Position numbers and translations under genes: made by a program. The notes below the pieces were generated by a model. The model ran no database searches. It was not told the origin of the DNA and saw only the letters and a list, made by a program, of their open reading frames with translations. Shown here piece by piece: positions 602 through 62,316 of a DNA stretch of 64,000 bases. This DNA is from an uncultured Oscillospiraceae bacterium (lineage in GTDB: Bacteria; Bacillota; Clostridia; Oscillospirales; Acutalibacteraceae). Position 1 is the stretch's first letter, and the number at the start of each line of letters is the position of its first letter. Location of the stretch: assembly GCA_900553255.1 (NCBI GenBank), contig USCI01000001.1, forward strand, positions 12,371 through 76,370. Direction: 5' to 3'.

Positions 602-2710
602 ATGAAAAAGCGAATCAGGACGCTGTTATGCGCGGTGGTGCTGCTGCTTGTGCCGGCGATGGACTGCGCGGCCGATGCGGATGTGCGGGACAGCTATACC
701 TATACCTACTGGGGCGACGCCGAGCCGCTTCCCGCCCTGTACGAGGCGCAGCGGGTGATCCGTGCGGAGGACAGCGGGCTGCTGCCGTTCAAGGAGCCAC
801 AGGATCTGTTCGTGGACGCGCGCCATGATAATAAGGTTTATGTGGCGGATACCGGCCGGGACCGGGTGGTGATCTATGACGCGGATTTCACGCTGCTCGG
901 CGAGCTGCATGAGCTGACCGGGCCGGACGGAGCACAGCAGACGCTCAGCGTGCCGATGGGTGTATTCGTGGACGCGCAGGAGCGCATCTACGTGGCCGAC
1001 CAGGGCAATAAGCGTGCGGTGTGCGTGGACGCGCAGGGGAATATCCTGGCGGAATACCGGCAGCCGGAGGGGGAAATCACCTTTGAAAGCGTGGATTTCC
1101 TCCCGGTGAACGTGCTGGCGGATACCAATGGGTTTGTGTACGTGCTCGGTGCCGGGATGCTCGAAGGCGCCGCTGTCTACACGCAGGACGGCGTCTTTCA
1201 GGGGTATTACGGCGCGAACACGGTGGAGGTTACCCTGTCGGTGGCGCTCAATAACTTCTGGAAAAAGCTGCTCAACCAGGAGCAGCGGGACAAGATTGAG
1301 AAGAACGTGCCGGATCAGGTGGCGAACTTTGACATCGACAGCCGGAATTTCATCTATACCTGCACCGAGATTTCTCAGACCAACCAGAACCAGATCAAGC
1401 GCTTTAACCCGGTGAGCGTCAACGTGCTGCGCAGAAGCAGCACCCTCGCCGCCGCATATCAGGAGGTTTACGGCGACCTGAAGGTCAGCTATCTCAACGG
1501 CACCGCGCAGCGCAGCTCGTTTGTGGATGTGTGCTGCGACAGTGAGGGATATATTTACGGGTTGGACTTCACCCGCGGGCGCATCTTCATGTATACCGGC
1601 GACGGCGAGCTGGTCGGCGCATACGGCGGCACCGCCGAGCGGGAGGGGTATTTCCGCAAATGTGCGGCAGTGGATGATATGGGAACGCGGCTGGTGGTGC
1701 TGGATTCCGGCAAAAACGACATCACGGTGCTGTCCCGCACCGCCTTTGCCGAAAACATCGTGCGCGCGCAGACGGCGTATAAGACGGGAGACTATGCCGC
1801 CTCGCTGGAAAGCTGGCAGCAGGTGCTCGGCGCCGACCGCCATCTGGAGCTGGCGATCAACGGCGTAGGGCGAGCGCTGTATAACCTGGGAGATTACACC
1901 GCGGCGATGGGCTGGTTCCGGGAGGGCAACGACCGGGTGGATTACGAAAAGGCTTTCCAGCGCAGCCGCGATGACCGGATGCGGGCGCTGTTCCCCTGGC
2001 TGCTGTCGGGGCTGGCCGCCGTGGGTGTGCTCGCGGGGGTATGCGTGCTGGTGCGCCGTCGGAGGCGGGCGTCCGCCGCCGCAGATTACGGTCCCCGAAA
2101 GAGGGCGTATGTGCGGCATATCCTCAGCCATCCGACCGACGGCTTCGACGACCTGCGGGAGCAGAAGCACACCCTGCTGCTCTATACGCTGTTTATCCTG
2201 CTGCTGTTTTTCACCGGCCGGGTGGCGCAGCGGCAGCTGACCGGCTTCCTGTTCAACACCAACGATTTTTCCACCCTCAACCTGGCCACCGAGTTTTCCC
2301 GGACGATCCTGGTGTTTTTGCTGTGGGTGGTTTGTCACTGGGCGGTAACCACCCTGTTCTCCGGCAAGGCGGCCCCGCGGGAGATCTGGACGGTCAGCGC
2401 GGTGGCGCTGACGCCGTACGTGGCGGCGATGTGGATCAATGTGCTGCTGAGCAACGTGCTGCTGACCACCGAGTCGATGTTCATGACCATTCTGCAGGGT
2501 GTATGCGTGCTGTGGGCGGTCTGGATCCTGCTGTCCGGCCTGATTGATTATCAGGAATTTTCGTTCTGGCAGACCATCGGCTGCATCCTGCTGACGCTGG
2601 CCGCCATGCTGGTGGTGGTGTTCGTGCTGGTGCTGCTGTTCAGCCTGTTCCAGCAGGTCGCCAACTTTATCCAGACGGTGGCGCGGGAGATCATGCTGCG
2701 CATGCAGTAG
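602..2710 (+). CDS. membrane protein: signal peptide + NHL-repeat beta-propeller + TPR-like segment + C-terminal Yip1-like multi-TM domain
   Basis: RBS GGGAGGGAAG lies before the ATG. NHL-type motifs 'VYVADTGRDRVVIYD' and 'IYVADQGNKRAVCVD'. A TPR-like 'YKTGDYAASLESWQQVL..LGDYTAAMGWF'. About 6 C-terminal hydrophobic helices. Paralog of 60183..62303. Confidence 0.85.
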   Translation: MKKRIRTLLCAVVLLLVPAMDCAADADVRDSYTYTYWGDAEPLPALYEAQRVIRAEDSGLLPFKEPQDLFVDARHDNKVYVADTGRDRVVIYDADFTLLGELHELTGPDGAQQTLSVPMGVFVDAQERIYVADQGNKRAVCVDAQGNILAEYRQPEGEITFESVDFLPVNVLADTNGFVYVLGAGMLEGAAVYTQDGVFQGYYGANTVEVTLSVALNNFWKKLLNQEQRDKIEKNVPDQVANFDIDSRNFIYTCTEISQTNQNQIKRFNPVSVNVLRRSSTLAAAYQEVYGDLKVSYLNGTAQRSSFVDVCCDSEGYIYGLDFTRGRIFMYTGDGELVGAYGGTAEREGYFRKCAAVDDMGTRLVVLDSGKNDITVLSRTAFAENIVRAQTAYKTGDYAASLESWQQVLGADRHLELAINGVGRALYNLGDYTAAMGWFREGNDRVDYEKAFQRSRDDRMRALFPWLLSGLAAVGVLAGVCVLVRRRRRASAAADYGPRKRAYVRHILSHPTDGFDDLREQKHTLLLYTLFILLLFFTGRVAQRQLTGFLFNTNDFSTLNLATEFSRTILVFLLWVVCHWAVTTLFSGKAAPREIWTVSAVALTPYVAAMWINVLLSNVLLTTESMFMTILQGVCVLWAVWILLSGLIDYQEFSFWQTIGCILLTLAAMLVVVFVLVLLFSLFQQVANFIQTVAREIMLRMQ

Positions 2711-2729
2711 CGTGCAGGAGGAGGTTTGT

Positions 2730-4991
2730 ATGTACAGGAAACGAACCAACCGGTTCGCCGCCGGCGCGGCAGCGGTGCTTTGTGCGCTGTCCCTGTGCGG
2801 CTGCCGCGGGACACAGGCGCCCGCCGCTGCGGACACGGCCCCGCGCGCCGTGGGTGAACCGCTTTCCGGCGGGGAGCAGACGGTGGCGTCCGCCGGCGCC
2901 TGGCAGCTGACGGTGGAAGCGTCCACCGGGGAATTTGCAGTGGAAAACCAAGCAGCGGGCGTACGCTGGCGTTCCAACCCGACCGCCCAGGAACGGGAGG
3001 CGGATGAGATTGCCAAGGGCAACGGCCGCGCGCTGCTGGCGTCGGCGCTGCGCATCGAGTATCAGGATGCGCTGGGCAACATCAGCGCATCCTCCGGCTA
3101 CACGGCGTCGGTGCGTAAGGACGGCCTGAGGCTGTACGCCATTGAGGACGGCTTCCGGGCGGAGTACACCTTTGTGGACGAGGAGATCGTTATCCCGCTG
3201 GACGTGCAGCTGCAGCCGGACGGGCTGCACTGCTCGGTTCCGGTAGCCGAAATTCAGGAACTGGGGGAGAACCGCCTGCTGACGCTGACGCTGCTGCCCG
3301 CCTTCGGCGCGGCCGGCCCGGAGGAGGAGGGGTATTTCCTGGTGCCGGATGGCTCCGGCGCGCTCATCCGGTTTAATAACGGCAAATACCTGTACGACAG
3401 CTTTTCGATGCCGGTATACGGTGCGGAGGCGGCCCGTGAGCAGGATGCGCTGGCGTATACGGGGGAAAATGTGCTGCTGCCGGTGTTCGGTGTCAGCAAG
3501 GGAACGTCCGGCCTGCTGGCGGTGATCAGTGAGGGAGCAGCCGGCGCGTCGGTGGAGGCGTCGGTCGCCGGCAAATCCACCTCGTATAACCTCATCAGCG
3601 CCGCTTTTACGCTGCGCAGCACCGAGGGCTATACCATCGGCACCTCGGTGGGGGTCACCAAGGAGGTGCGCCTGTATCAGGAGGGCGCTCTCGGCGGCGG
3701 TTCGCTGGGCGTGACCTACCGATTCCTGGATGAGGGGCAGGCGGATTACGCCGGGATGGCGGTCTCCTGCCGCGAGTGGCTGCTCGGACGGGGCTGGCTG
3801 CCGGAACAGAAGACGGCGGCGCTGCCGCTGTATGTCCGCCTGCTGGGCGGTGCGCTCAAGGAAAAATCGGTGCTCGGCATCCCGACCAAACAGGTCGAAA
3901 AGCTCACCGGCTTTGCCCAGGCGGCGGATATCCTGCGGCAGCTGGAGAAAAGCGGCGCGGATGACCTGACGGTGCTGCTGGAGGGCTGGTCGCAGCCGAT
4001 GCTGCAGGGAAAAATCGATGTCAAGGCGTCGCCGGCCTCGGCGCTCGGCGGGAAAAAGGAGCTGGCGGCGCTGCAGGCGCTCTGCCGCGAACAGGGAACC
4101 GCCCTGTACCTTGACAGTGAATTTCAGAAGACCGCCAAATGGGGGAGCGGATACAGCTCGTTCCTGCACGCCGCCCGTACGGTCAGTGGGGTGCCCGCGA
4201 CGGTCAGCCGCTATGATCTCGCCAGCCGGCTGGCGGTGGAGGGGACGCAGGAAAACCTGCTGTCTCCCGGCGTTTTTACCGACGTATTCGGCCGTTTCCT
4301 GGCCGGCCTGCAAAAGCAGGACGAATCCGGTGAAACCGGCCTCGGCATGGGTTCGGCCGCATATATGCTGTACAGCGATTACGGCGCGGGCTACAGCCGG
4401 GAGCAGAGTGCGCTCGCCGTGCAGGCGGCGCTCGGGCAGGCAAAAGCGTCCGGCCGCGGGTTGGTGGGCTGCCGGGCCAACGCGTATGTGTGGCCCTATG
4501 CGGACAGCCTGCTGGCGCTGCCGCTGACCTCGAGCCGCTACAACATCGAGGACGAAACGGTGCCGTTTCTTCAGATGGTGCTTAAGGGCTATATCCCGTA
4601 CAGCACCCCGTCGGTCAACCAGGCGGACGACCCGCAGGAGATGTTCCTGCAGGCGGTCGAAACCGGCAGCGGGCTGCTGTTCACCCTGATCGGCGGGGCG
4701 GCGCAGCTCACGCGGGACACGGTGTACGCGGAATATACCAGCGCGTCGGCCGCCGAATGGATCGGCCCGGCGGCGGAATATCAGCAGGCGCTCGCGCAGC
4801 TCGCGGCGCAGATCGGGGACAGCACCATTGTCGGGCACAGCCGGCGCGGCAGCCTCAGCGCCACGGCGTATGAGAACGGCGTGACCGTGTACGTCAATTA
4901 CGGCAGCGCGGCAGCGCAGTGGGGGGACACGCAGGTGCCCGCCCGAAGCTACACGGCGGTGCGGGAGGACAGCGTGAAGGGAGGCGCATGA
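2730..4991 (+). CDS. DUF5696-like lipoprotein (family name from memory, function unknown)
   Basis: ATG at 2730 is preceded by GGAGGAGG (the track start 2712 is less likely). Signal peptide with 'LSLCGC'. Conserved block 'LTLTLLPAFGAAGPEEEGYFLVPDGSGALIRF' matches 'LEVMPFFGAAGAMEDSYILIPDGCGALMHF' in the ORF at 62317. Confidence 0.8.
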   Translation: MYRKRTNRFAAGAAAVLCALSLCGCRGTQAPAAADTAPRAVGEPLSGGEQTVASAGAWQLTVEASTGEFAVENQAAGVRWRSNPTAQEREADEIAKGNGRALLASALRIEYQDALGNISASSGYTASVRKDGLRLYAIEDGFRAEYTFVDEEIVIPLDVQLQPDGLHCSVPVAEIQELGENRLLTLTLLPAFGAAGPEEEGYFLVPDGSGALIRFNNGKYLYDSFSMPVYGAEAAREQDALAYTGENVLLPVFGVSKGTSGLLAVISEGAAGASVEASVAGKSTSYNLISAAFTLRSTEGYTIGTSVGVTKEVRLYQEGALGGGSLGVTYRFLDEGQADYAGMAVSCREWLLGRGWLPEQKTAALPLYVRLLGGALKEKSVLGIPTKQVEKLTGFAQAADILRQLEKSGADDLTVLLEGWSQPMLQGKIDVKASPASALGGKKELAALQALCREQGTALYLDSEFQKTAKWGSGYSSFLHAARTVSGVPATVSRYDLASRLAVEGTQENLLSPGVFTDVFGRFLAGLQKQDESGETGLGMGSAAYMLYSDYGAGYSREQSALAVQAALGQAKASGRGLVGCRANAYVWPYADSLLALPLTSSRYNIEDETVPFLQMVLKGYIPYSTPSVNQADDPQEMFLQAVETGSGLLFTLIGGAAQLTRDTVYAEYTSASAAEWIGPAAEYQQALAQLAAQIGDSTIVGHSRRGSLSATAYENGVTVYVNYGSAAAQWGDTQVPARSYTAVREDSVKGGA

Positions 4992-4992
4992 G

Positions 4993-5898
4993 ATGAATAC
5001 GATACGCAGGGACGGCGGCCGGTGGTCCTTTGAGAAGAAGAAACGCCGTATCGGCTATGCGTTCATAGCCAGCTGGCTGATCGGCTTCTTTCTGCTGTAT
5101 GCCAAGCCGCTCGTGGAGTCGCTGGTGTATACCTTCCATACGCTCAAGGTGACGTCAAGCGGGTTTGAGATGACTCCGGCGGGGCTGGACAATTACCGGT
5201 ACGCGTTCTTTTCGGATCCGGATTTTCTGCGGATTCTGCTGACCTCGCTGAAGGACATTCTGTACCAGACCCCCACCATCCTGGTGTTCAGCCTGCTGAT
5301 TGCGTTGCTGCTCAATCCGAAGTTCCGGGGCAGAGGCCTGATGCGCGCCGTCTTTTTTCTGCCGGTGATCATCGCGTCGGGCGTGGTCATCAACATCATC
5401 AACGGCGATGTAATGTCCACCGTGATGATGTCCAGCGAAAAAAGCGGCCAGCTGTTCGAGGTGGACGCCTTTTATGAGATGCTCATCGGCATGGGACTGA
5501 GCGAAAGCCTGGTGAGCACGATTGTGGGGGTGGCGAATAACATATTTGAATTGTCCTGGCAGTCCGGCATCCAGATCACCCTGATCCTCGCGGGGCTGCA
5601 GTCGATTTCCCCGACGCTGTACGAAGCGGCGGCGATGGACGGGGGCACCAAATGGGAGGTGTTCTGGTTCATCACCTTCCCGATGCTGACCCCCATTCTG
5701 ATGGTGGCCCTGATTTATACCGTGGTGGAAATGTTTACGAATTACAGCAACCCGGTGATGCAGAAGATCCTGGAATACGGCAATAAGCTGAATTTTGCCT
5801 ACAGCTCCACGATCGCGTGGCTGTATTTCCTGGTGATTGCCGTGCTGCTGGCGCTGGTGTTCCTGCTGTTCGGCAGGCGGGTGGTCTATGCGGACTGA
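4993..5898 (+). CDS. sugar ABC transporter permease (LplB/MalF-like)
   Basis: Start is 2 nt after the previous stop. Six hydrophobic segments. EAA loop 'LYEAAAMDGGTKWEVFWFITFPMLTP'. Confidence 0.9.
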   Translation: MNTIRRDGGRWSFEKKKRRIGYAFIASWLIGFFLLYAKPLVESLVYTFHTLKVTSSGFEMTPAGLDNYRYAFFSDPDFLRILLTSLKDILYQTPTILVFSLLIALLLNPKFRGRGLMRAVFFLPVIIASGVVINIINGDVMSTVMMSSEKSGQLFEVDAFYEMLIGMGLSESLVSTIVGVANNIFELSWQSGIQITLILAGLQSISPTLYEAAAMDGGTKWEVFWFITFPMLTPILMVALIYTVVEMFTNYSNPVMQKILEYGNKLNFAYSSTIAWLYFLVIAVLLALVFLLFGRRVVYAD

Positions 5899-5913: not shown

Positions 5914-6936
5914 ATGATTCCCTGGTTTTCCGTGTGGGAGGCGAAGGTCTCCGGCTTTGTGCAGCGGATGGAGGGGCGTTTGCTCGGCAGTACGCGGGTG
6001 CGCCGCCGTGTGTCCGGCGTGGCCGGCTTCATCGGGCGGCTGCTGATCTTCACCGGCTTCAGCTTCATCATTCTGTATCCCCTGCTGTATATGCTCAGCG
6101 TAGGCTTCCGGCAGGCGGACGACATGGCGGATCCGATGGTCATCTGGATCCCGAAGCACCTGACCCTGGAGAATATACAGGACGCTTTCCGGCTGATGGA
6201 CTATCCGACGTCGCTGCGCAATTCGGTGACGCTTGGGGTGGTCAGCTCGCTGCTGCAGATCCTGTCCTGTGCACTGGTGGGCTATGGCTTTGCGCGGTTT
6301 GAATTCAAGGGCAAAAGGCTGCTGTTTGCGCTGGTGCTGTTCACCATCATCGTGCCGCCCCAGGTCATCTACGCCCCCACCTATCTGTCCTATAAGTCGT
6401 TTGACTTTTTCGGCCTGGGGCAGATCGGGCGGCTGTTCACCGGCGAGCCGTTCACGGTCAACATCCTCAACACCGGCTTCAGCCTGTACCTGCCGGCGCT
6501 GCTGGGGGTGGGGATCCGTTCGGGGCTGTTCATCTATATTTTCCGGCAGTTTTACCGCGGCCTCCCGCATGAGCTGGAGGACGCCGCCTATATCGACGGC
6601 TGTGGCTTTTTCCGGACCTTTTTCCGGGTGATCCTGCCCAACGCCTCGGCGGCGCTGCTGACCGTGTTCCTGTTTTCCATCGTGTGGTACTGGAACGATT
6701 ATTACTACATCGCGATGTATTTTTCCAGCACCAAAACCGTTTCGATGGCGTTGTCGCTGCTGCCGGACGCGCTGGCCACCAACCAGGCGACACAGTCGCT
6801 CAGCGGCGACCCCTACCTGATCGGCACCCGGCTGCAGGCCGGCGCGCTGCTGGCCATCACTCCGCTGCTGATCCTGTATCTGTTTTTGCAGAGGTATTTC
6901 ACCCAGGGCTTTGAACGCACCGGCCTGACCGGCTGA
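5914..6936 (+). CDS. carbohydrate ABC transporter permease (LplC/MalG-like)
   Basis: RBS AAGGAGGGGG. EAA loop 'LEDAAYIDGCGFFRTFFRVILPNASAAL'. Multiple TM helices. Confidence 0.9.
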   Translation: MIPWFSVWEAKVSGFVQRMEGRLLGSTRVRRRVSGVAGFIGRLLIFTGFSFIILYPLLYMLSVGFRQADDMADPMVIWIPKHLTLENIQDAFRLMDYPTSLRNSVTLGVVSSLLQILSCALVGYGFARFEFKGKRLLFALVLFTIIVPPQVIYAPTYLSYKSFDFFGLGQIGRLFTGEPFTVNILNTGFSLYLPALLGVGIRSGLFIYIFRQFYRGLPHELEDAAYIDGCGFFRTFFRVILPNASAALLTVFLFSIVWYWNDYYYIAMYFSSTKTVSMALSLLPDALATNQATQSLSGDPYLIGTRLQAGALLAITPLLILYLFLQRYFTQGFERTGLTG

Positions 6937-6969
6937 GTCTGCGGCAAAAAAAGAAAAGGAGAGCTGAAG

Positions 6970-8811
6970 ATGAAAAAACAACTGGTTGTTCTGCTGGCAC
7001 TGTGTATGCTGCTGAGCCTGGTGCTTTCCGGCTGCCAATCGACCACCACGTCCTCCGGTACGCCGGGCGAGGTGCCGGAAAACGGGATCGGCTCGGACGA
7101 TCTGGAATCGGATTTCCCGACCATTCCGCTGGAAAGCAAGGAAATCCGGGTGATGACCACCAACCCGGAATTCGACGAGAAGCTCGTCGAGCTGCTCGGG
7201 CAGCAGTACGGCGTAACGGCGGTCCCGGTAACGGTCAGCTGGGCGGATATCCCGGTGCGGCTGTCCACGATGGTGATGTCGGAGGATGCGCCGGATCTGG
7301 TCATCAACCGCAGCGATCTGGAGGACTATCCGAATTATATCGTCAACAATCTCGTGCAGCCGATCGACGGCTATATCAACCTCGAGCATAAACTGTTCCG
7401 CGACCTCAAGGATGCCTATGAATACTCCCTCTGGGGCGGTGAGCATTATATGCTCATCGGCCATTTGGGGCATGAGATGGGGGTCATGTTCAACACCAGG
7501 CTGTTCGAGGAATACGACCTGGAAAACCCGTGGGAGCTGTACCTTAAGGGTGAATGGGACTGGGACGCGCTGCGGGAGATGGCGATCGAGCTGACCGAGG
7601 ATGAGGACCGTGACGGCACGCCGGAGCGGTACGGCATGCAGTTTGTCAACCCCACCTCGTTTGTGTACAGCACCGGCAAAACGCTCGGGCGGATCGACGG
7701 GGCGAACAAAACCATCGTCAACCAGATCGAGGATCCGGATATCGCGCGGGCAATGAATTTTGTCTCGGACCTGATCACCAAGGATAAGGTGTGCACCACC
7801 GCGGTCAGCAGTGCGATCACCGATTTCCGCAACGGGAAATGTGCGATCCTGTACGGATCGGCGTATCCGTATATCGGTACCGAGCTCAAGGAAATGGCCA
7901 AGGCGGGGATCCTGGGCTTTGCGCCGCTCGCGCGCGACCCGCAGCTGGATACCCATTATGCGCGCGGCCAGTTTGCCGGCTATTTCATTCCGGTCGGGGC
8001 GAAGAACCCGCTGGGCGCGGTGGCGTTTTATGCGGTGGAACGGTATCTCAACACGGTGGGCAAGGAAGAAAAGGATAACGCCGACTGGGCGAAATACCAG
8101 TCTGAATATTATCTCAGCGATCTCAACCGCGAGCAGATTGAGGCGTGCTTCTCGGTGGAGATGCTGCCGGACCTGACGCCGTGGCTGGATCAGGGCGCGA
8201 TGTGGACTATGATCGGTTCGGGCAGCAGCTGGGCGGCGCAGCTGCAGAGCTCGCTGCCGAAGATCAATGCACGCATCGAGGAGCTCACTACGCCCGAAGA
8301 GTACGACGCGCCGTCCGGCCCGAAGGTCATCGACGATTTTGAAGGCTATGGCGACGAGGAAAAGACGCTGTCCCGCTATCTGCTGATGGACGGCGGCGAC
8401 CAGAACATCACCGTGTCGCTGGATGCGGCGCATTCCAATGGCGACGGCAAATTTGCGGCGAAGATCACCTACACGCTGGACAATGCCCTCTGGGGTGGCG
8501 TTTACCGCACGGTCAACAAGACCTGGAACGGCAACAATACGCTGCGCCTGTGGGTGCAGGGCGACGGCAGCGGTCAGGTGCTCGGCCTGCGGTTTGACAC
8601 GGCCAACGGCGGCGTTTGGAGCAAGAACATCGAGATCAACAGCGCCGAGGGCCAGGTCATCGAGATTCCGCTCAGCGAGTTTGAGGATGCGTATGGTTTG
8701 GGCGCGGATATGGATCTGACCAAGGTGACCAAGTTCTATATCTCGTTCGGCGAGATGAAGACCGCCACCAAGACCATGTATATCGACAACATTGAAGTGA
8801 TCGCGAAATAA
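6970..8811 (+). CDS. extracellular solute-binding lipoprotein with C-terminal CBM-like domain
   Basis: Lipobox 'LVLSGCQS'. SBP-like body. The last ~170 aa, 'VIDDFEGYGDEEKTLSRY...LRLWVQGDGSGQVLGLRFD...FYISFGEMKTATKTMYIDNIEVIAK', look like a CBM11/CIA30-type beta-sandwich. Confidence 0.8.
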   Translation: MKKQLVVLLALCMLLSLVLSGCQSTTTSSGTPGEVPENGIGSDDLESDFPTIPLESKEIRVMTTNPEFDEKLVELLGQQYGVTAVPVTVSWADIPVRLSTMVMSEDAPDLVINRSDLEDYPNYIVNNLVQPIDGYINLEHKLFRDLKDAYEYSLWGGEHYMLIGHLGHEMGVMFNTRLFEEYDLENPWELYLKGEWDWDALREMAIELTEDEDRDGTPERYGMQFVNPTSFVYSTGKTLGRIDGANKTIVNQIEDPDIARAMNFVSDLITKDKVCTTAVSSAITDFRNGKCAILYGSAYPYIGTELKEMAKAGILGFAPLARDPQLDTHYARGQFAGYFIPVGAKNPLGAVAFYAVERYLNTVGKEEKDNADWAKYQSEYYLSDLNREQIEACFSVEMLPDLTPWLDQGAMWTMIGSGSSWAAQLQSSLPKINARIEELTTPEEYDAPSGPKVIDDFEGYGDEEKTLSRYLLMDGGDQNITVSLDAAHSNGDGKFAAKITYTLDNALWGGVYRTVNKTWNGNNTLRLWVQGDGSGQVLGLRFDTANGGVWSKNIEINSAEGQVIEIPLSEFEDAYGLGADMDLTKVTKFYISFGEMKTATKTMYIDNIEVIAK

Positions 8812-8930: not shown

Positions 8931-9665
8931 ATGACGGTTTTGACGCAAAAGGAATATCTGGATAAGGTGCAGGCCTGCTGGAACGGCAAGAATGTCGGCG
9001 GGACGCTTGGCGCGCCGTTTGAGTGTCTGCGCGGCGTGTTTGAGCTGGACGGCTACACCGTCGAGCTGGGCGGCGAGCCGCTGCCGAACGACGACCTGGA
9101 CCTGCAGCTGGTGTGGCTCAACGCCGCAGAGGCGTACGGCCCCGCGGTAAACAGCAAAATCCTCGGGGAATACTGGAACTGGTGGGTAACGCCCCATTGG
9201 GGCGAGTATGGCGCCGGAAAAAACAACCTGCGCGCGGGCATCGTCCCGCCGTTGTCCGGCGTGGTGAATAATGTCTACGGCAACTCAAACGGCTGTTTTA
9301 TCCTGTCGGAGATCTGGGCCTGCCTGTGTCCGGGGCATCCGGAACGGGCGGTGCGCTATGCCTATGAGGACGGCTGCGTCAATCACTATGCCGAGGGGCT
9401 GTATGCGGAAATTTTCTGTGCAGCGATGGAGAGCGCGGCCTTTGCCGAACGGGATATCGAGCGGCTGATCGACATCGGCCTGTCCTACATCCCGCAGGAC
9501 TGCGGCATCGCCGCAGCGGTGCGCAGCGTGCGCGGCGCGTTCGCGGCCGGCAAAACGGACGCCGAGATGTGTGCCTTTGGTGGACGGACGTTGTATATTA
9601 CGGCCGAAGCCGGCGAGGGCACACTCGCTTTTCGGTCGCTGTGCTTCCGGGCAATTTCGGAATAG
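8931..9665 (+). CDS. ADP-ribosylglycohydrolase-family protein, apparently C-terminally truncated
   Basis: ATG at 8931 after AAAGAGG. 'GGTLGAPFE', 'NDDLDLQLVWL' and 'EGLYAEIFCAAMESAAF' are ARH-like. The ORF ends after ~244 aa in an odd tail, just where AT-rich DNA and a terminator begin. The expected C-terminal metal-binding Asp region is missing. Confidence 0.6.
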   Translation: MTVLTQKEYLDKVQACWNGKNVGGTLGAPFECLRGVFELDGYTVELGGEPLPNDDLDLQLVWLNAAEAYGPAVNSKILGEYWNWWVTPHWGEYGAGKNNLRAGIVPPLSGVVNNVYGNSNGCFILSEIWACLCPGHPERAVRYAYEDGCVNHYAEGLYAEIFCAAMESAAFAERDIERLIDIGLSYIPQDCGIAAAVRSVRGAFAAGKTDAEMCAFGGRTLYITAEAGEGTLAFRSLCFRAISE

Positions 9666-9756: not shown

Positions 9757-9785
9757 TTGAAAATCGGGAGGCGGTATGCTATAAT
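9757..9785 (+). promoter_or_regulatory. sigma-A type promoter upstream of aspS
   Basis: TTGAAA (9757-9762), a 17-nt spacer, then TATAAT (9780-9785). About 190 nt of AT-rich leader follows. Confidence 0.65.
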
Positions 9786-35315: not shown

Positions 35316-36218
35316 ATGCCTGTGGGGCTTTCTTTACAGCACGTCAGCAAATCCTTCGGTGAGCGCAAGGCGGTGGACGACCTCAGCTTCTCGATGGAGC
35401 ATCCGGGGGTCTTCGGCCTGATCGGCACCAACGGCGCCGGAAAAACCACCACCATCCGCATGACGCTCGGCGTGATGGATCGCGATGCCGGGGAAATCAC
35501 CTGGAACGGCGGCCCGCTCAACCGGGACACCGTGCGTTTCGGCTACATGCCGGAGGAGCGCGGCATCTATCCAAAGGTGAAGGTCATCGACCAGCTTGTG
35601 TATTTCGGTGAGCTGCGCGGCATGAGCCGCAAAGCGGCGTTCGAATCCGCCGACCGCTGGCTCGCGCGGCTCGGGGTAACCGAATACCGGGACATGATGG
35701 CCGAAAAGCTGTCGAAGGGCAACCAGCAGAAAATCCAGCTGATCGCCACCCTGATCCACAGCCCGGAGCTGATCTTCCTCGATGAGCCGTTCAGCGGCCT
35801 TGACCCGATCAACACCGATGTTTTCAAAAGCGTGATCGGCGAGCTGATCGCTGAAAACAAATACATTGTGATGTCCAGCCACCAGATGGCGACGGTGGAG
35901 GAATACTGCGAGGATCTGGTGATCCTCACCCATGGGCGCACGGCGCTGGCCGGCAACCTGCGGCAGATCAAGGCGGGATACGGCCACACCAACCTGTCGG
36001 TCGGCTGCGCAGCCGACCTGCTGCCGCTGGCCGAACAGCACGGGCTGCGGCTGATCGAAAAGACCGCCGGCGGCTATGAATTCAAAATCACCGGCGATGA
36101 GATGGCCAACGGCTTCCTGCGGGACATGGTGGCGCGCGATATTTTCCCGGAACGCTTTGAGATCCGGGAGCCGTCGCTGCACGAAATTTTTGTGGAAAAG
36201 GTGGGTGAGGCCGGATGA
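35316..36218 (+). CDS. ABC transporter ATP-binding protein (ABC-2/NatA-like)
   Basis: Walker A 'GTNGAGKTT', signature 'LSKGNQQK', Walker B 'LIFLDEPFSGLD'. Confidence 0.9.
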   Translation: MPVGLSLQHVSKSFGERKAVDDLSFSMEHPGVFGLIGTNGAGKTTTIRMTLGVMDRDAGEITWNGGPLNRDTVRFGYMPEERGIYPKVKVIDQLVYFGELRGMSRKAAFESADRWLARLGVTEYRDMMAEKLSKGNQQKIQLIATLIHSPELIFLDEPFSGLDPINTDVFKSVIGELIAENKYIVMSSHQMATVEEYCEDLVILTHGRTALAGNLRQIKAGYGHTNLSVGCAADLLPLAEQHGLRLIEKTAGGYEFKITGDEMANGFLRDMVARDIFPERFEIREPSLHEIFVEKVGEAG

Positions 36219-37492
36219 GAGACATTTTGACGGTATTCCGCTTCACCCTGCGGGACGGCGCGCGCAAAAAAGCCTTCTGGGTGACCACCATTATCGTGCT
36301 GGTGCTGATCGTCGGCATCTGCTGCATACCGCGGGTTATGGAGCTGTTTTCCGGCGGAAGCACGCCGGAACCGGGCACCGAACCCCCCGGCGCCTCCGCG
36401 GGCGAGCCGGCCGAAAAGACCGAAACCTGCTACCTGATCGATGAGCAGCAGCTCATCCCCGGCGCCGCCGAAGCGCTCGCCGCCGCGCTGCCGCAGGCCG
36501 ACGTCATCGCCGGCGAGGAAAGCCAGCTCGACAGCTATAAGACGGAGGCCGAGGAGGACAACAGCATCTATATCGTTCAGGTTTTGCCGTCCGAACAAGG
36601 GGCGCTGCCGAAGGTACAGTTTTATGTGCACGACATCCTCAGCGGCGCGCCGACCGACACGGTGACAGCGGTGCTCAAGACCACCTATGTGTCCCAGGCG
36701 CTGCAGTCCGCCGGCGTTTCGGCCGATATGGCGGCGCTTGCCCTGTCCGACATGACCTACGACATGGCGATTGTGGGAAAAATGGATATGTCGGGGTATG
36801 TCCTTGGCATTCTGCTGACCATGCTCACCTTCTTTGCGGTGTACTATTACGGCTACGGCGTGGCGATGTCGGTCGCGTCCGAAAAGACCTCCCGCGTGAT
36901 GGAAACGCTGGTGGTTTCCGCCAAGCCGTCCCGCATCCTGGTGGGCAAAATCCTCGGCATGGGCGTGCTTGGACTGCTCCAGATGCTGATGTTCCTGGTG
37001 GTCGGGGCGCTCGGCTACACGCTGCTCGTACCGGAGGGCTTCACCATCGGCGGCATGCCGCTGGCGCTGTCGGCCTTCACCCCCGCCTCCGCGGTGCTGA
37101 TCCTCGTGTACTTCCTGCTCGGCTATGCGCTGTATGCGGTGCTCAACTCGGTCTGCGGCGCCACGGTCAGCCGCACCGAGGACCTCAACGCCGCGATGAT
37201 GCCCACCGTATTCATCAGCCTGATCGCGTTCTATGCTGCCTATATGGTGATGTTTATCCCCAACGAGGCGGCCAAGCGGATCGTCACCTATATCCCGTTC
37301 ACCTCCCCGTTCCTGCTGCCCTTCCGGCTGCTCAACGAAACGGTGCCGGCGACGGATATCGCCATCTCGCTTGTACTGCTGGTGGTCTGCATCGCGCTCG
37401 TGGCGCTGCTGTCCATCCGGATTTATTCCGCTTCGGTGCTGCATTACGGCCAGCGGCTGAAGCTGAAGGACATTCTCAAGCTGAGCAAATAA
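36215..37492 (+). CDS. ABC-2 family transporter permease (NatB-like)
   Basis: ATGA overlap with the ATPase gene. An N-terminal TM, a large extracytoplasmic loop, then 5 C-terminal TM helices. Confidence 0.85.
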   Translation: MRDILTVFRFTLRDGARKKAFWVTTIIVLVLIVGICCIPRVMELFSGGSTPEPGTEPPGASAGEPAEKTETCYLIDEQQLIPGAAEALAAALPQADVIAGEESQLDSYKTEAEEDNSIYIVQVLPSEQGALPKVQFYVHDILSGAPTDTVTAVLKTTYVSQALQSAGVSADMAALALSDMTYDMAIVGKMDMSGYVLGILLTMLTFFAVYYYGYGVAMSVASEKTSRVMETLVVSAKPSRILVGKILGMGVLGLLQMLMFLVVGALGYTLLVPEGFTIGGMPLALSAFTPASAVLILVYFLLGYALYAVLNSVCGATVSRTEDLNAAMMPTVFISLIAFYAAYMVMFIPNEAAKRIVTYIPFTSPFLLPFRLLNETVPATDIAISLVLLVVCIALVALLSIRIYSASVLHYGQRLKLKDILKLSK

Positions 37493-37577
37493 TGCCAAAA
37501 GGGAGCCGGACAGAGCCGGCTCCCTTTTGGCGGCTTACGGCGGAAAAAAAGTCTTTCTTAATACGAGGGGATCGGCC

Positions 37578-39176
37578 ATGACAAAACAAAAATGGCGGAA
37601 AAAGCTCGAAGCCCGTTTTGGACGGATGCCGCAGGAAGCCATCGAAGACAGCGAAATCGATATCCTGCGGGGGTATTTCGACCACCGGCGTAAAGCGGAG
37701 CCGACGGTCTTCCATATCGACGAGACCACCTGGCAGGATCTCTCGCTGGACGAGGTGTACCGGCGGGTCAACCACACCCTGACCTCGCCGGGGGATCAGC
37801 TGCTGTACTACTGGCTGCGCGCCCCTGCGCAGGAGGAAGCGGTCTACACCCGGCGGCGGGAGATGATCCGCTATATGGAGACACACCCCGAGGTTCGTCT
37901 GCGCATCCAGATGATCCTGGCCAAAACCGGAAAGCACCGGGCCGCGCAGACAATCGAGTCCTTTGCCCCGTCGGCCGCCCGCTCAGGCGGATTATGGATC
38001 GCCCTGCTGCTGCCCGTGATGCTGCTGGCAGCGGGACTGTGCATGGTGAAAATCGCCTGGATGGTGCCGGTGTTTTTCGCGCTGCTCATCCTGCTGCCGG
38101 CCTACCATATCGGGATGACCCGCCGGCTGGAGGAAAACCTGCCGATTGCCAACGCCATCGTCTCCACCGTTGCCGCCTACCGGAAAATCGTCCGCACGCT
38201 GCCGGAGGACGGCCGGTTTTTAACCGCGCCGTACGAGCAGGCCGGCCGCCGGGCAAAGACGGTCACCCGGATCGGCGGCGCATCGTTCGCGACCTGCAAC
38301 GACCTGATGCTGCTGATCAACAACTTCCTTTTGTTTGACCTGATCGTATACGAGCTGCTGAAAACCCGCATCGGCCGGCTGAGCCGGGAGGTATCCGCCA
38401 TTCATACCTGTGTGGGCGAGCTCGACGCGGCCATCGCGGCGGCCTCCTACCGGAAGGCGGCCGGACACTGGTGCGAGCCGGATTTGTCCTTCGCGCCGGA
38501 TGCCCCGCTGCAGCTGCGGGCCGTCGGTATGGTACACCCGCTGCTCCGCCATCCGGTGCCCAACACGGTGGACACCGCACAGTGCCTGCTGATCACCGGT
38601 TCCAACGCTTCGGGTAAATCCACCTTTCTGAAGGCGGTCGCACTCAACGCCCTGCTCGCGCAGAGCATCGCCACCGCCCTGTGCGACGAATACAGCGCCC
38701 CGGCCTTCCATATTTACAGCTCGATGGCGCTCAGCGACGATATTCTGGCAGGCGAAAGCTATTTCGTCACCGAAATCAAGGCTGTGCGGCGCATCTGCCG
38801 CGCCGCGGAACGGGGAGAGCGCGTGCTGTGTATCGTCGACGAGGTGCTGCGCGGCACCAACACGGTCGAGCGCATCGCCGCCTCGAGCGTCCTGCTCGAG
38901 GATTTAGCGGAGCACGACTGCCTGTGCATCGCGGCAACGCATGACGCCGAACTGTGCGAGCTGCTCGGGGCGCGCTATGCCCTGTTCCATTTTCAGGAGC
39001 AGGTCACCGATTCCGACATCACCTTCGATTACCGTCTGCGCCCCGGTGCCGTCTGCTCCAGCAACGCCATCCGGCTGCTCGGGCTGCTCGGCTTTCCGGA
39101 AGCCGTCACCGCGCGTGCGGATGAACGGGCGGACCGTTATCGCCAAAGCGGAAAATGGACGCCCTCACCGCAATAG
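37578..39176 (+). CDS. MutS-family (domain V ATPase) protein with internal transmembrane segments
   Basis: 'LITGSNASGKSTFLKAVALNALLAQ' Walker A. 'SYFVTEIKAV' and 'IVDEVLRGTNTVERIA' MutS ATPase motifs. Hydrophobic stretch 'LWIALLLPVMLLAAGLCMVKIAWMVPVFFALLILLPA'. No mismatch-binding or Smr domain is evident. Confidence 0.75.
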   Translation: MTKQKWRKKLEARFGRMPQEAIEDSEIDILRGYFDHRRKAEPTVFHIDETTWQDLSLDEVYRRVNHTLTSPGDQLLYYWLRAPAQEEAVYTRRREMIRYMETHPEVRLRIQMILAKTGKHRAAQTIESFAPSAARSGGLWIALLLPVMLLAAGLCMVKIAWMVPVFFALLILLPAYHIGMTRRLEENLPIANAIVSTVAAYRKIVRTLPEDGRFLTAPYEQAGRRAKTVTRIGGASFATCNDLMLLINNFLLFDLIVYELLKTRIGRLSREVSAIHTCVGELDAAIAAASYRKAAGHWCEPDLSFAPDAPLQLRAVGMVHPLLRHPVPNTVDTAQCLLITGSNASGKSTFLKAVALNALLAQSIATALCDEYSAPAFHIYSSMALSDDILAGESYFVTEIKAVRRICRAAERGERVLCIVDEVLRGTNTVERIAASSVLLEDLAEHDCLCIAATHDAELCELLGARYALFHFQEQVTDSDITFDYRLRPGAVCSSNAIRLLGLLGFPEAVTARADERADRYRQSGKWTPSPQ

Positions 39177-39211
39177 AAAACAAGCTTACGATTAAAAAGG
39201 AGGCCTATCCA

Positions 39212-39964
39212 TTGACGACAAAAAAGCAGCTTTGCGAGGGACTGCGCCGGCTTGGCGTGCAGCCCGGCGATGTCCTTCTTGTCCACAGCGCGATGAAACC
39301 GCTCGGCCCGGTCGAGGACGGCTGCCGCGGCGTGATCGAGGCGCTGCTTGAGGCGCTGACCGACACGGGCACCCTGCTGCTGCCGGCGCTCACCTATGCG
39401 ACGGTCACGCGGGAAAACCCCGTTTTTTCGGTCAGCGATACCCCCTCCTGCGTCGGCAAACTGTCCGAGGCGTTCCGCACCATGCCGGGCGTCCGGCGCA
39501 GCGTACACCCCACCCACTCGGTGTGTGCCGTCGGACGGCTTGCCGCCGAAATGCTATCCGGGCACGAGGACGACCGCACACCGGTGGGACCGCATTCCCC
39601 GTTTCGCCGTCTGGCCGAGCAGGGCGGAAAAATCCTGATGCTCGGCTGCAGGCTAACCCCCAACACCTTTATGCACGGCGTCGAGGAGGAGGCCGGGGTA
39701 CCGTACTGCCTGTCACCCGACCCGATTGCCTATACCTGCATCCTGCCGGACGGGACGCGGTACACCGCCACATACACGCCCCATCTGTTTGAAGGGATAA
39801 CCCAGCGCTACGATCGGGCAGCGGCGCTGCTCGACGGGGGCGCCCTGCGGTTCGGCCGGGTAGCTCTGGCCGACTGCGCCTTGATCGACGCGGCAAAGCT
39901 GCGCCGGGCGGCGCTGGCCCGGATGCAGACGGAGCCTCTGTATTTTGTCGATCGCAACGTCTGA
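39212..39964 (+). CDS. AAC(3)-family aminoglycoside N-acetyltransferase-like protein
   Basis: 'GVQPGDVLLVHSAMKPLG', 'GTLLLPALTY', 'RSVHPTHSVCAVG' and 'TFMHGVEE' match the AAC(3) fold. TTG 39212 follows AAGGAGG by 8 nt. The track start at 39155 overlaps the upstream gene. Confidence 0.75.
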   Translation: MTTKKQLCEGLRRLGVQPGDVLLVHSAMKPLGPVEDGCRGVIEALLEALTDTGTLLLPALTYATVTRENPVFSVSDTPSCVGKLSEAFRTMPGVRRSVHPTHSVCAVGRLAAEMLSGHEDDRTPVGPHSPFRRLAEQGGKILMLGCRLTPNTFMHGVEEEAGVPYCLSPDPIAYTCILPDGTRYTATYTPHLFEGITQRYDRAAALLDGGALRFGRVALADCALIDAAKLRRAALARMQTEPLYFVDRNV

Positions 39965-40805: not shown

Positions 40806-41678
40806 TCAACTGCGATTCTTCCGATACTTGGATGGAGCAGCGCCGTAATACCGTTCAAACACTCTGGTAAAGGACGACGCATCAGGAAAACCGACTGCGG
40901 CACCGATTTGAGTAACACTGAGGGAAGATTCCGTAAGCATCTGCTTCGCGTGGGTCAGACGGCACAGTAAAAGATATTCATGCGGTGCTATTCCCGTAAC
41001 ACGGCGGAACAACTTTGAAAAATAAGGTCGGGATAAAAAGCACTGTTGTGCCAACTGATCTACATTGAGCGGTTCACGATAATGCGTCTTGATGTAGGTA
41101 ATACTGTTTCCTATCAACTGCCGTGACAATTCCGAAACAGTATCACAGCAATCCTCGTCACCAAGCAGTGCGACCAAAATGGCATAGATCTCACCTGACA
41201 AAAGCGCACCTGCACCGAGCGGTGGCTGCTCCATCATAGCAAGAATCCGATCGGTATGCTCAATCACATTTAAGAACGTCGGGGATGTAGGTATCATCAT
41301 AGGTCCACTTTTCTTTTGCAGATGTGAGGTGTACTGCTCGCGCATTGCACCGCCCCAATGAATATATTTGAACGCCCAGCCCTCCTCCAAAGAATAGTAA
41401 CTGTGCGGCGTTTCGGCATCCAATATAGCAACCGTTCCTGCCGTCAGAAGGTAGGTTTTTTCGCGATAAAGCAGTTCCCCGCGACCCGACAGCGTCATCA
41501 TAAGCAGTGTATCGCCGCAGACCCGTTGTCTAATCGCATAGCTTTTTTTGGTAACATAGTGCCCTGCATAGTGCGGCGTAAAAAACAGCTTCTCATGTTC
41601 ATCCGATGCAATATAGATGTGCCGCAGAGTATATATAGAGTTTTCTGTTTCCGCAACCGGAATTCGATCATTTATCAT
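40806..41678 (-). CDS. AraC-family transcriptional regulator
   Basis: Cupin-like N-terminus and C-terminal 'NVDQLAQQCFLSRPYFSKLFRRVTGIAPHEYL..' HTH pair. ATG at 41678 (MINDRIPV) is preferred over the track start. Confidence 0.85.
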   Translation of the reverse strand: MINDRIPVAETENSIYTLRHIYIASDEHEKLFFTPHYAGHYVTKKSYAIRQRVCGDTLLMMTLSGRGELLYREKTYLLTAGTVAILDAETPHSYYSLEEGWAFKYIHWGGAMREQYTSHLQKKSGPMMIPTSPTFLNVIEHTDRILAMMEQPPLGAGALLSGEIYAILVALLGDEDCCDTVSELSRQLIGNSITYIKTHYREPLNVDQLAQQCFLSRPYFSKLFRRVTGIAPHEYLLLCRLTHAKQMLTESSLSVTQIGAAVGFPDASSFTRVFERYYGAAPSKYRKNRS

Positions 41679-41835
41679 ACAAGTCGGCAAATTTATCCCT
41701 CCAAGATTACAAAACGTAAAAAATCGGATACATTTTATCATTGCAACCCCTTTATTTGTGTACTATAATCAAAAATAACCATATTAGTATTATACTACAT
41801 TGATGACATTTTGTAAAGAATGCAAGGAGGCAAAT

Positions 41836-42726: not shown

Positions 42727-42779
42727 TTAGAATCCCCGTTACAACATCATTTGTGCAAAAGAAAGGAGATCCGGCGCCA

Positions 42780-49124: not shown

Positions 49125-49143
49125 GAAAAAGCCTTCACGGTAT

Positions 49144-49413
49144 GAGATAAGCAGGCTCGAACCCGGCCCGCCTTCTCTGGGCAGGACGTCGGCCGTCTGC
49201 GTTTTCGTCCTTGATGGGCGCCAGCCCATCTTCGTTCTCAGCCTTGCCGGACAACGTCCTGCTCCCCAGAGAAGGTCGAAGAATTTCGGAGAGCGGAAGA
49301 AAGGCGGGACAAGGCGCCTGACCGAGGCATGCTGCCGCATGCTAAGGAAAGGCAACGACGGCCGGCTTTTCTTCCGCCGCCGAAATCGTGTCGTGTTCGT
49401 GCCTGCTTATCTT
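49144..49413 (+). other. ~270-nt non-coding element with nested long-range helices (candidate structured RNA or MITE-like element)
   Basis: AGATAAGCAGGC (49145-49156) pairs with GCCTGCTTATCT (49401-49412). CCTTCTCTGGGCAGGACGT (49171-49189) pairs with ACGTCCTGCTCCCCAGAGAAGG (49254-49275). GCGGAAGAAA (49293-49302) pairs with TTTCTTCCGC (49368-49377). Inner hairpins at 49213-49230 and 49328-49343. Confidence 0.55.
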
Positions 49414-49449
49414 AACCAAATCATTCAAACAGAGAGGGGTTCCGATCCG

Positions 49450-50631: not shown

Positions 50632-50643
50632 GGAGGAGAGGCA

Positions 50644-52134: not shown

Positions 52135-52144
52135 GGTCGTGTTC

Positions 52145-55287: not shown

Positions 55288-55355
55288 TAGCCGCACGGAA
55301 ACCACCCCAGGCAGCGGGGCAAAAGAAACCCCCACAGCCCGCAAGTGTTTTTCAA

Positions 55356-55392
55356 GGAGCTGCTGCAAAAGGAAACCTTTTGCAGCAGCTCC
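55356..55392 (+). other. perfect 17-bp intercistronic stem-loop between the two SBP genes
   Basis: GGAGCTGCTGCAAAAGG-aaa-CCTTTTGCAGCAGCTCC with no U-tract after it. Confidence 0.7.
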
Positions 55393-55418
55393 GTCGGCAC
55401 GAGAGGATGATCTACATA

Positions 55419-58340: not shown

Positions 58341-58353
58341 AGGAGGAACGGAT

Positions 58354-59250: not shown

Positions 59251-59254
59251 GGAG

Positions 59255-60172: not shown

Positions 60173-60182
60173 CAGACGGAGC

Positions 60183-62303: not shown

Positions 62304-62316
62304 GAGGGATGCGGAT

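Follow-up and report, generated by a model that had tools for sequence, protein, structure and literature searches.

The question raised by the locus described here is why a membrane protein with an NHL propeller, TPR helices and a Yip1 domain (NHL-TPR-Yip1) and a large lipoprotein of the DUF5696 family should be encoded side by side among the permease genes of ATP-binding cassette (ABC) sugar transporters. The two genes lie at positions 602-4991 of a 64,000-nucleotide stretch of contig USCI01000001.1 from an uncultured Oscillospiraceae bacterium; this whole stretch is called the window below. A preliminary description of the same DNA had portrayed the pair as embedded between two ABC transporter gene sets and had suggested an unrecognised accessory module. 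The comparison with other genomes indicates that the pair sits within one conserved block of genes, and the reading that we consider probable on balance is that it encodes part of an unrecognised accessory platform, outside the cell, for a dual CUT1 importer, and that this apparatus is the unvarying centre of glycan-utilisation loci in Gram-positive bacteria.

The window opens inside the first copy of this block (cluster A), whose genes are listed here, with P1 and P2 denoting the first permease pair, P1' and P2' the second, SBP a solute-binding protein and TM a transmembrane helix:

5-586, + strand: permease P2 (MalG/UgpE-like), C-terminal 193 residues, truncated by the window edge (BPD_transp_1 43.7 bits; partial UgpE/MalG matches)
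602-2710, + strand: NHL-TPR-TM-Yip1 fusion, copy A, 702 residues (Pfam Yip1 and SGL, AlphaFold2 model, Foldseek)
2730-4991, + strand: DUF5696 lipoprotein, copy A, 753 residues (Pfam 540 bits, AlphaFold2 model, Foldseek)
4993-5898, + strand: permease P1' (MalF/UgpA-like), 301 residues, which opens the second permease pair (BPD_transp_1 24.7 bits; UgpA E 8e-10)
5914-6936, + strand: permease P2' (MalG/UgpE-like), 340 residues, EAA loop EDAAYIDGCGFFRTFFRVILP, P2' orthologous group (BPD_transp_1 55.3 bits)
6970-8811, + strand: SBP' lipoprotein with a C-terminal CBM11, 613 residues, an optional part of the cluster (SBP_bac_8 47 bits, CBM_11 46 bits)

The open reading frame (ORF) map and the junction sequences agree with the earlier claim that the two central genes are real and stand 15, 19 and 1 nucleotides from their neighbours. 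The ATG at 602, which is preceded by the ribosome-binding site GGGGGAGGG, follows the permease stop at 586 by 15 nucleotides; the likeliest start of DUF5696 is the ATG at 2730 behind GGAGGAGG, which leaves a 19-nucleotide gap (the mechanical ORF begins at GTG 2712); and the ATG of P1' at 4993 lies 1 nucleotide past the DUF5696 stop at 4991. The BPD_transp_1 score of P1' is slightly under the Pfam cut-off of 26.4 bits; its translation contains the EAA loop EAAAMDGGTKWEVFWFITFP, and it belongs to the P1' orthologous group. By NCBIfam, the cluster A permeases are of generic CUT1 types (UgpAE, MalFG, GlcTU); the earlier description had called the operon LplABC-type, and the similarity seen was to CUT1 permeases in general. 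The truncated P2 closes the first permease pair and has its counterpart in the 308-residue P2 of a 90%-identical locus (L081), in which the part of cluster A that lies beyond the window consists of DUF4855 proteins, an AraC regulator, a 943-residue SBP, P1 and P2. An Rfam search of the window matched no RNA element, a terminator scan within cluster A gave only weak terminator-like matches inside ORFs, and one strong promoter-like site (9757-9785) lies past cluster A, upstream of aspS.

Insight into the meaning of this arrangement comes from its conservation. Species-representative genomes (one per species) were scanned with a DUF5696 motif, which gave at least 590 confirmed matches, and the best 80 loci were retrieved; their hosts are Oscillospiraceae, Ruminococcus, Lachnospiraceae, Acetatifactor, Christensenellales-type metagenome-assembled genomes and many Paenibacillus. 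ORFs of these loci were labelled by hidden Markov models (HMMs) made from the window's own proteins, and counts were limited to loci with enough contig flank, so that the denominators vary. Across these 80 genomes of Clostridia and Bacilli the genes follow the order large SBP, P1, P2, NHL, Yip1, DUF5696, P1', P2', and no exception was found among the 80 loci wherever the flank suffices. In particular, upstream of DUF5696 there is a Yip1 gene directly adjacent (77 of 77 loci), an NHL gene (73 of 73), two permease genes (66 of 66) and a gene for an SBP of more than 800 residues (62 of 64); directly downstream there is always a permease gene (77 of 77), and two permease genes follow in 58 of 58 loci, adjacent to each other in 49 and parted by a two-gene insertion in 9. 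A second SBP gene after P2' is present in 30 of 64 loci and is absent throughout the Ruminococcus group. The identical order was found in seven further loci, three of them around distant DUF5696 relatives; it is retained by these three relatives at 23-26% identity, by two NHL-Yip1 relatives at 28-29% identity and by the 90%-identical relative of the window. For the distant loci and the 90%-identical relative the order was read from precomputed gene calls and Pfam labels, independently of our own HMMs. Conserved co-occurrence with ABC permeases, which had been set beforehand as the test of the proposal, is thus borne out by the downstream permease, by the upstream pair and by the distant relatives as well.

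Neighbouring genes overlap or lie close together, as expected of one operon: the median gap is -4 nucleotides both from NHL to Yip1 and from DUF5696 to P1', and 12-22 nucleotides at the remaining junctions. As read from the sequence, the core is one operon of about 12 kb; it has eight genes where NHL and Yip1 are separate and seven where they form a fusion. The four permeases constitute four orthologous groups, with 39-53% identity within a group and about 24% between groups, and the best match of a permease always falls in its own group (278 of 278). The picture of a pair lying between two ABC gene sets therefore needs to be amended. Two permease genes do stand on each side in related loci; in the window itself, the upstream side holds one partial permease gene. 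Nor has the pair been inserted between independent transporters; rather, both permease pairs are parts of one co-inherited unit.

Three irregularities were seen among these loci. In the nine loci with an insertion (L008 13452-16624, L015 13184-16972, L026 12998-15792 and six more), two genes for secreted proteins of about 360-390 and 520-840 residues stand between P1' and P2', and neither gene gave a Pfam match in the nine loci. In L086 an insertion sequence element with helix-turn-helix and DDE_3 transposase genes (5981-7092) lies in the P1 region and splits the permease gene, the cluster being otherwise intact. A complete cluster (L078) lies on a contig that binning had assigned to 'uncultured Alistipes sp.' (Bacteroidota), every other host belonging to the Firmicutes; this host label is probably a binning error, or else the cluster was transferred.

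A second NHL-Yip1/DUF5696 pair is present at the opposite end of the window (60183-62303 and 62317 onward), inside cluster B (53680-64000, + strand), whose genes are separated by gaps of 4-13 nucleotides:

53680-55287, + strand: SBP lipoprotein heading cluster B, 535 residues (SBP_bac_1 47.8 bits)
55380-58340, + strand: large SBP, 986 residues (SBP_bac_1 81.6 bits at residues 603-886)
58354-59250, + strand: permease P1, 298 residues (BPD_transp_1)
59255-60172, + strand: permease P2, 305 residues (BPD_transp_1 48 bits)
60183-62303, + strand: NHL-TPR-TM-Yip1 fusion, copy B, 706 residues (NHL 75.3, Yip1 48.3, SGL 37.7 and TPR_2 27.3 bits)
62317-64000, + strand: DUF5696 lipoprotein, copy B, 561 residues visible, continuing past the window end (DUF5696 271.7 bits)

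This second copy, with the same arrangement, shows that the two genes come together behind a permease pair. The two copies have diverged widely, with 27% identity between the NHL-Yip1 proteins in an alignment and 31% between the DUF5696 proteins (BLASTP, 397 residues). In translation, the large SBP of cluster B starts with a stretch of about 560 residues containing two internal repeats, which may be carbohydrate-binding, and continues with a CUT1 SBP domain; the protein resembles the sugar SBPs Lin1841 and GacH. DUF5696 copy B has the lipobox LALTSC. It also carries PDGCG in place of the PDGSG kept by all 132 other members examined.

The first of the two central proteins had been described as a beta-propeller tethered to a Yip1 domain, and this holds. 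Copy A matches Pfam Yip1 at 46.2 bits (cut-off 28.6; residues 506-675, model positions 2-172 of 173) and the beta-propeller family SGL at 27.2 bits (cut-off 26.3), and Foldseek aligns its AlphaFold2 model to TRIM-NHL propellers (E 1.5e-15, TM-score 0.78). HMM confirmation, which had been proposed for all three families, was obtained above cut-off for DUF5696 and Yip1; for NHL it failed in copy A (18.1 bits, cut-off 20), as did TPR_16 (25.9 bits, cut-off 32.7), and in copy B NHL is well above, with TPR_2 just over its cut-off of 27. A sequence search relates the propeller to the extracellular NHL sensor of Mycobacterium tuberculosis PknD (1rwi, E 1.4e-6) and to PknD-derived designed proteins, and consensus TPR proteins match residues 391-442; the Yip1 part has no match in the PDB. 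The model (pLDDT 80.7) is all-beta from residue 31 to 379, which fits a six-bladed propeller, and continues with four TPR-type helices (381-441), a long helix with TM1 (about 462-482), RRRRR, a disordered linker and the Yip1 helices (526-546, 561-585, 592-616, 626-651 and 655-701). In window coordinates, the signal peptide occupies about 602-667 (residues 1-22), the six-bladed NHL propeller about 689-1738, the TPR helices about 1742-1924, TM1 about 1985-2047, followed by RRRRR, and the five-helix Yip1 domain about 2117-2707. With a signal peptide ahead of them and, behind them, a single TM helix and a positively charged cytoplasmic tail, the propeller and TPR are placed outside the membrane.

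NHL and Yip1 are encoded by split genes in 61 loci and are fused in 16, the split point falling exactly after TM1 and its K/R tail. Of the split NHL proteins, 55 of 57 start with a signal peptide and 56 of 57 end in a TM helix and its K/R tail; the split Yip1 proteins begin at a conserved HPxDGF-like motif (52 of 59). Because the two are fused in some loci, NHL and Yip1 presumably work together. Public annotation calls them just 'YIP1 family' and 'NHL repeat-containing'.

The second central protein, described beforehand as a DUF5696 lipoprotein of about 750 residues, is indeed one. Copy A covers model positions 7-612 of 612 of Pfam DUF5696 (PF18952) at 540.4 bits (E 8e-162, cut-off 25.6), and its N-terminus, MYRKRTNRFAAGAAAVLCALSLCGC, contains a lipobox (LCGC). 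Among the 132 members over which residue conservation was counted, 127 have an N-terminal hydrophobic export or anchor segment, and the lipobox occurs in 35 only; by these signals, DUF5696 is exported and, in this genome, lipid-anchored. The expectation that both products face outward is thereby upheld, as a prediction, for the NHL-TPR part (signal peptide and TM1 topology) and for the exported DUF5696 protein. The family is large, with about 7,281 clusters at 50% identity at E <= 1e-3, 4,144 of them at E <= 1e-30, and its public annotation is just 'DUF5696 domain-containing'. In long variants of about 950-1300 residues, Pfam finds DUF6273 in one and no other extra domain.

The AlphaFold2 model of copy A (pLDDT 87.8, pTM 0.88) consists of an N-terminal beta-sandwich (about 2862-3734), a TIM barrel (about 3747-4694) and a C-terminal beta-sandwich (about 4749-4970). 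The top Foldseek matches, over the full length, are GH129 structures (ZgGH129 5opq at E 1.9e-29, then 8rzk and 5wzn-5wzr, with E-values to 1e-24 and TM-scores of 0.70-0.74, NagBb reaching 0.74); GH101, GH36, GH31 and GH97 rank after them. Sequence identity to the GH129 structures is 13-15%. When a profile of 25 DUF5696 sequences was searched against PDB sequences, ZgGH129/DagB (E 1.5e-9) and NagBb (E 1.9e-5) were found at the whole-sequence level, the single aligned stretches being marginal (independent E-values of 0.006 to 3.5). The model thus has the three-domain GH129/GH101-like glycosidase fold, in a remote relative of those enzymes. The preliminary description had allowed that DUF5696 might turn out to be an ordinary annotated enzyme family; the fold does resemble one, but the relationship is remote and the family has no assigned function.

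Several acidic residues are strongly conserved. D207, in the PDGSG loop of the N-terminal domain, is invariant (132 of 132), and D/E233 is kept in 128 (97%). Within the barrel, D550, which the model places in the beta4-alpha4 loop, is present in 122 members (92%), and an acid at 608/609 in 113 (86%), another subgroup having E607 instead; E607, D608 and E609 lie in the beta6-alpha6 loop of the copy A model. In GH27, GH31, GH36 and GH101, the beta4-alpha4 and beta6-alpha6 loops carry the nucleophile and the acid/base. The GH129 catalytic residues used for comparison were D435/E478 of NagBb and D486/E517 plus D202 of ZgGH129; the Asp alone (NagBb D435, ZgGH129 D486) is common to both GH129 branches (PMC5698469). 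Catalysis by DUF5696 is plausible. In the subgroup with the two-gene insertion between P1' and P2', the DUF5696 motif xDExVPF is replaced by xETxxVPF.

The genes around the core differ from locus to locus. Flanking ORFs of 34 loci encode SBPs, GH32, GH53, DUF4838, GH43, alginate lyase, GH95, GH10 and dockerin proteins (among 105 flanking ORFs, GH32 6, GH53 5 and DUF4838 6), and additional loci have GH5, GH16 with GH4, DUF4434, or DUF4855 with GH43; the regulators also vary, being of the AraC or LacI type or response regulators. Because the core is constant and the enzymes are variable, the organisation is that of a polysaccharide utilisation locus (PUL). Several Paenibacillus genomes have GH32 fructosidase genes on both sides of the core (L007 1-1398; L024 2-1780 and 15646-18619), which makes levan or inulin a candidate substrate in cultured strains. 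Cultured strains with the DUF5696 gene include Paenibacillus baekrokdamisoli KCTC 33723 (AP019308.1, 6,264,948-6,287,038), where GH32 genes flank it, and Ruminococcus callidus ATCC 27760 (NZ_CP186925.1, 3,293-25,269).

Taken together, these observations lead to a picture in which the NHL-TPR, Yip1 and DUF5696 proteins would form an extracellular platform on two CUT1-type sugar translocators. Firmicutes sugar importers commonly share an MsmX/MsmK ATPase encoded elsewhere, and an ATPase of this kind, encoded outside the core, would drive both translocators. The NHL-TPR ectodomain may hold glycan chains or partner proteins, the long N-terminal extension of the large SBP may bind carbohydrate, and DUF5696 would trim or hold the captured glycan beside the permeases, through D550 and the acid at 607-609. 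The core would be generic, and what sets substrate specificity would be the enzymes at its flanks, its binding proteins and the divergence of the core sequences. Yip1 would act as a membrane scaffold. The analogy is with YknW of the Bacillus subtilis YknWXYZ transporter, a Yip1-family protein that serves as an accessory subunit and modulates how the YknXYZ complex assembles (PMC4887032). A more elaborate form of the same picture, in which Yip1 joins the two translocators into a single supercomplex and DUF5696 docks on P1'P2' instead of an SBP to feed in bound or freshly cut glycan, we regard as unlikely; if true, the supercomplex would be an enzyme-coupled ABC importer without a classical SBP, a Gram-positive counterpart of SusCD for large glycans.

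A number of points weigh against an extracellular platform of this kind. Its functional steps are all inferred; no ATPase gene was found in any cluster inspected; and the analogy for Yip1 is drawn from an exporter of another ABC class. A glycosidase whose active site is conserved fits poorly among flanks as chemically diverse as GH32, GH53, GH10 and alginate lyase. A profile of the catalytic barrel half, searched against PDB sequences, gave only a spurious nanobody match, and a homologue search seeded with a 137-residue segment of 5opq, made for a GH129 alignment, found nothing; D550 and E607-609 are thus putative counterparts of the GH129 catalytic residues. D550 is replaced (by N, H, S or E) or falls in a gap in 10 of 132 members, and 19 of 132 have no acid at 608/609; because these candidate acids are missing, some members may be inactive. 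Moreover, the 80 loci, as the best matches of at least 590, are biased to close relatives, and the distant loci inspected comprise only three around DUF5696 relatives and two around NHL-Yip1 relatives.

Some of the same facts invite a different assignment for DUF5696, namely that it is a non-catalytic, glycosidase-derived receptor that replaces an SBP for P1'P2', holding the glycan chain and docking on these permeases. DUF5696 precedes P1'-P2' just as the large SBP precedes P1-P2, its stop typically overlaps the P1' start (the median of -4 nucleotides), and a dedicated SBP after P2' exists in fewer than half of the loci and never in the Ruminococcus group; a role as SBP would explain this gene position, the overlap and the frequent lack of a second SBP. 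Candidate catalytic acids are missing in 8-14% of members, conservation peaks in the PDGSG loop of the N-terminal domain rather than in the barrel, and a single hydrolytic specificity would sit badly with flanking enzymes that vary. However, D550 is kept in most members, in a barrel loop that carries the nucleophile in related glycosidases, and the large upstream SBP or orphan SBPs could serve P1'P2'. Type I ABC importers are known to trigger their ATPase through a class I/II periplasmic-binding-protein fold, which also counts against such a receptor, and we know of no case of a TIM-barrel receptor in an importer of this type. We consider this assignment rather unlikely. Still less probable, in our estimate, is a role of NHL-TPR-Yip1 as a sensor or gate, in which the propeller would detect glycan, as proposed for PknD, and the Yip1 helices would switch the permeases. 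The match of the propeller to the PknD sensor, the layout of an ectodomain, a single TM helix and a membrane domain, and the conserved cytoplasmic HPxDGF motif at the start of Yip1 are what such a role would lead one to expect; but the protein has no kinase, helix-turn-helix, GGDEF or other signalling output domain, the adjacent regulators are ordinary AraC, LacI or two-component proteins and are variable, and the sole documented role of a bacterial Yip1 protein is in assembly. A classical sensor was rejected, there being no output domain.

It could also be imagined that the module acts on the cell's own envelope, the alpha-glycosidase-like DUF5696 and the propeller making local openings in capsule or wall polysaccharide through which large glycans reach the membrane transporters. 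A constant enzyme among variable substrates is most simply understood if its target is a constant self structure, and the Ruminococcus versions have N-terminal extensions of about 190 residues, with no recognisable domain, that could span the wall. Yet the hosts (Paenibacillus, Gracilibacillus, Oscillospiraceae and Lachnospiraceae) likely differ in their envelope polymers, the 27-31% identity of paralogues in one genome suggests substrate-linked divergence, and no wall-binding domains (SLH, LysM or CWB) were detected in the proteins searched with Pfam, so that we think this very improbable. That chance alone placed two unrelated genes between two unrelated ABC sugar transporters in this genome is an impression given by the single locus only; with the order kept in 80 of 80 loci where the flank allows, in the 7 further loci and again within the window, coincidence has next to no probability and is refuted by the synteny, which likewise rules out two independent transporters. 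An export or biosynthesis system was rejected too, the flanks being catabolic and BPD_transp_1 permeases being known from importers.

The extracellular platform that we favour is built from components of known superfamilies, and its relation to described systems can be set out part by part. With the CUT1 importers (MalEFGK2, MsmEFGK, UgpBAEC and LplABC of B. subtilis) the core has in common MalF/UgpA-like and MalG/UgpE-like BPD_transp_1 permeases with EAA loops, SBP_bac_1/8 lipoproteins like Lin1841 and GacH, and an ATPase that is not local; in contrast to these importers, it co-inherits two permease pairs, in four groups, together with one obligatory large SBP, and it adds NHL-TPR, Yip1 and DUF5696 between the permease pairs. 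DUF5696 shares its fold over the full length with GH129 (the alpha-N-acetylgalactosaminidase NagBb of Bifidobacterium bifidum and the 3,6-anhydro-D-galactosidase ZgGH129/DagB of Zobellia) and with the GH101 endo-alpha-N-acetylgalactosaminidases, and its one strongly conserved barrel Asp parallels the Asp common to both GH129 branches (PMC5698469). Unlike GH129, however, it is an exported protein whose gene is locked in an operon with those of the permeases, Yip1 and NHL, its catalytic half has no detectable sequence match, and the PDGSG loop is its own. YknW, too, is a small Yip1 membrane protein with several helices, and its gene belongs to the operon of an ABC transporter; whereas YknYZ is a MacB-type exporter working with a membrane-fusion protein, the partners in the core are type I importer permeases, and no MacB-type or membrane-fusion protein genes, and hence no four-component YknWXYZ-like system, were found in the window clusters or in L081. 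In the core, Yip1 is fused or translationally coupled to an NHL-TPR ectodomain. The likeness to YknW is one of functional analogy within a shared Pfam family. The six-bladed NHL propeller is common to the core, to TRIM-type NHL proteins and to the sensor domain of PknD, whose propeller is extracellular on a single TM helix; the core, unlike PknD, has no kinase, has Yip1 as its membrane partner and has TPR after the propeller. Finally, the SusC/SusD PULs of Bacteroidetes and the Gram-positive PULs follow the same logic, with a constant uptake core, diverged copies in a genome and variable carbohydrate-active enzymes and regulators; the SusC/SusD proteins are wholly different and the core has no outer membrane to serve, which makes this an analogy and not a homology.

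Our literature searches found no CUT1 system with NHL-TPR, Yip1 and DUF5696 components, nor any account of these parts occurring together or of either central protein by itself. Their association is apparently undescribed, and the earlier suggestion of an unrecognised accessory module gains support from the fixed synteny; the mechanism may, with modest probability, be of a new kind. Complex-glycan uptake by gut and soil Firmicutes (Ruminococcus, Oscillospiraceae, Lachnospiraceae and Paenibacillus) is far less understood than the Sus-like systems of Bacteroidetes, and the core, with thousands of sequence clusters and several copies in a genome, could be a missing piece of this machinery. It could serve as a marker for new Gram-positive glycan-utilisation loci, including those with DUF4855, DUF4838 and DUF4434 enzymes; DUF5696 would become a candidate glycosidase family related to GH129, and the bacterial Yip1 proteins would gain a testable function.

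Further observations concern the surroundings of the two clusters. At the head of cluster A in L081 there are two DUF4855 proteins (1-1693 and 2982-5222, one with an F5/8 type C domain) and the AraC regulator, DUF4855 being a further uncharacterised family associated with the core. Past cluster A, about 2.25 kb of L081 (18947-21197) is absent from the window at about 9557-9581; the loss removes the 3' half of an ADP-ribosylglycohydrolase gene (278 residues in the window, 521 in L081) and takes the entire GH43 gene downstream of the cluster. Directly upstream of cluster B (48955-53683, + strand) lie three tandem paralogues of about 500 residues each, with no Pfam family except a weak DUF4434 match at 16 bits; paralogues 2 and 3 begin with a signal peptide and end in a TM anchor, paralogue 1 is apparently cytoplasmic if its start is near MANDSWQQEQ, and all three may be uncharacterised TIM-barrel glycosidases. 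A DUF4434 protein was also found after the core in L087. Between the two clusters, the window encodes an ABC-2 exporter pair (35316-37492), a MutS domain V protein (37527-39176), an aminoglycoside 3-N-acetyltransferase (39155-39964), an AraC regulator on the minus strand (40806-41741) and a GH63-like MGH1-type hydrolase (42753-44129).

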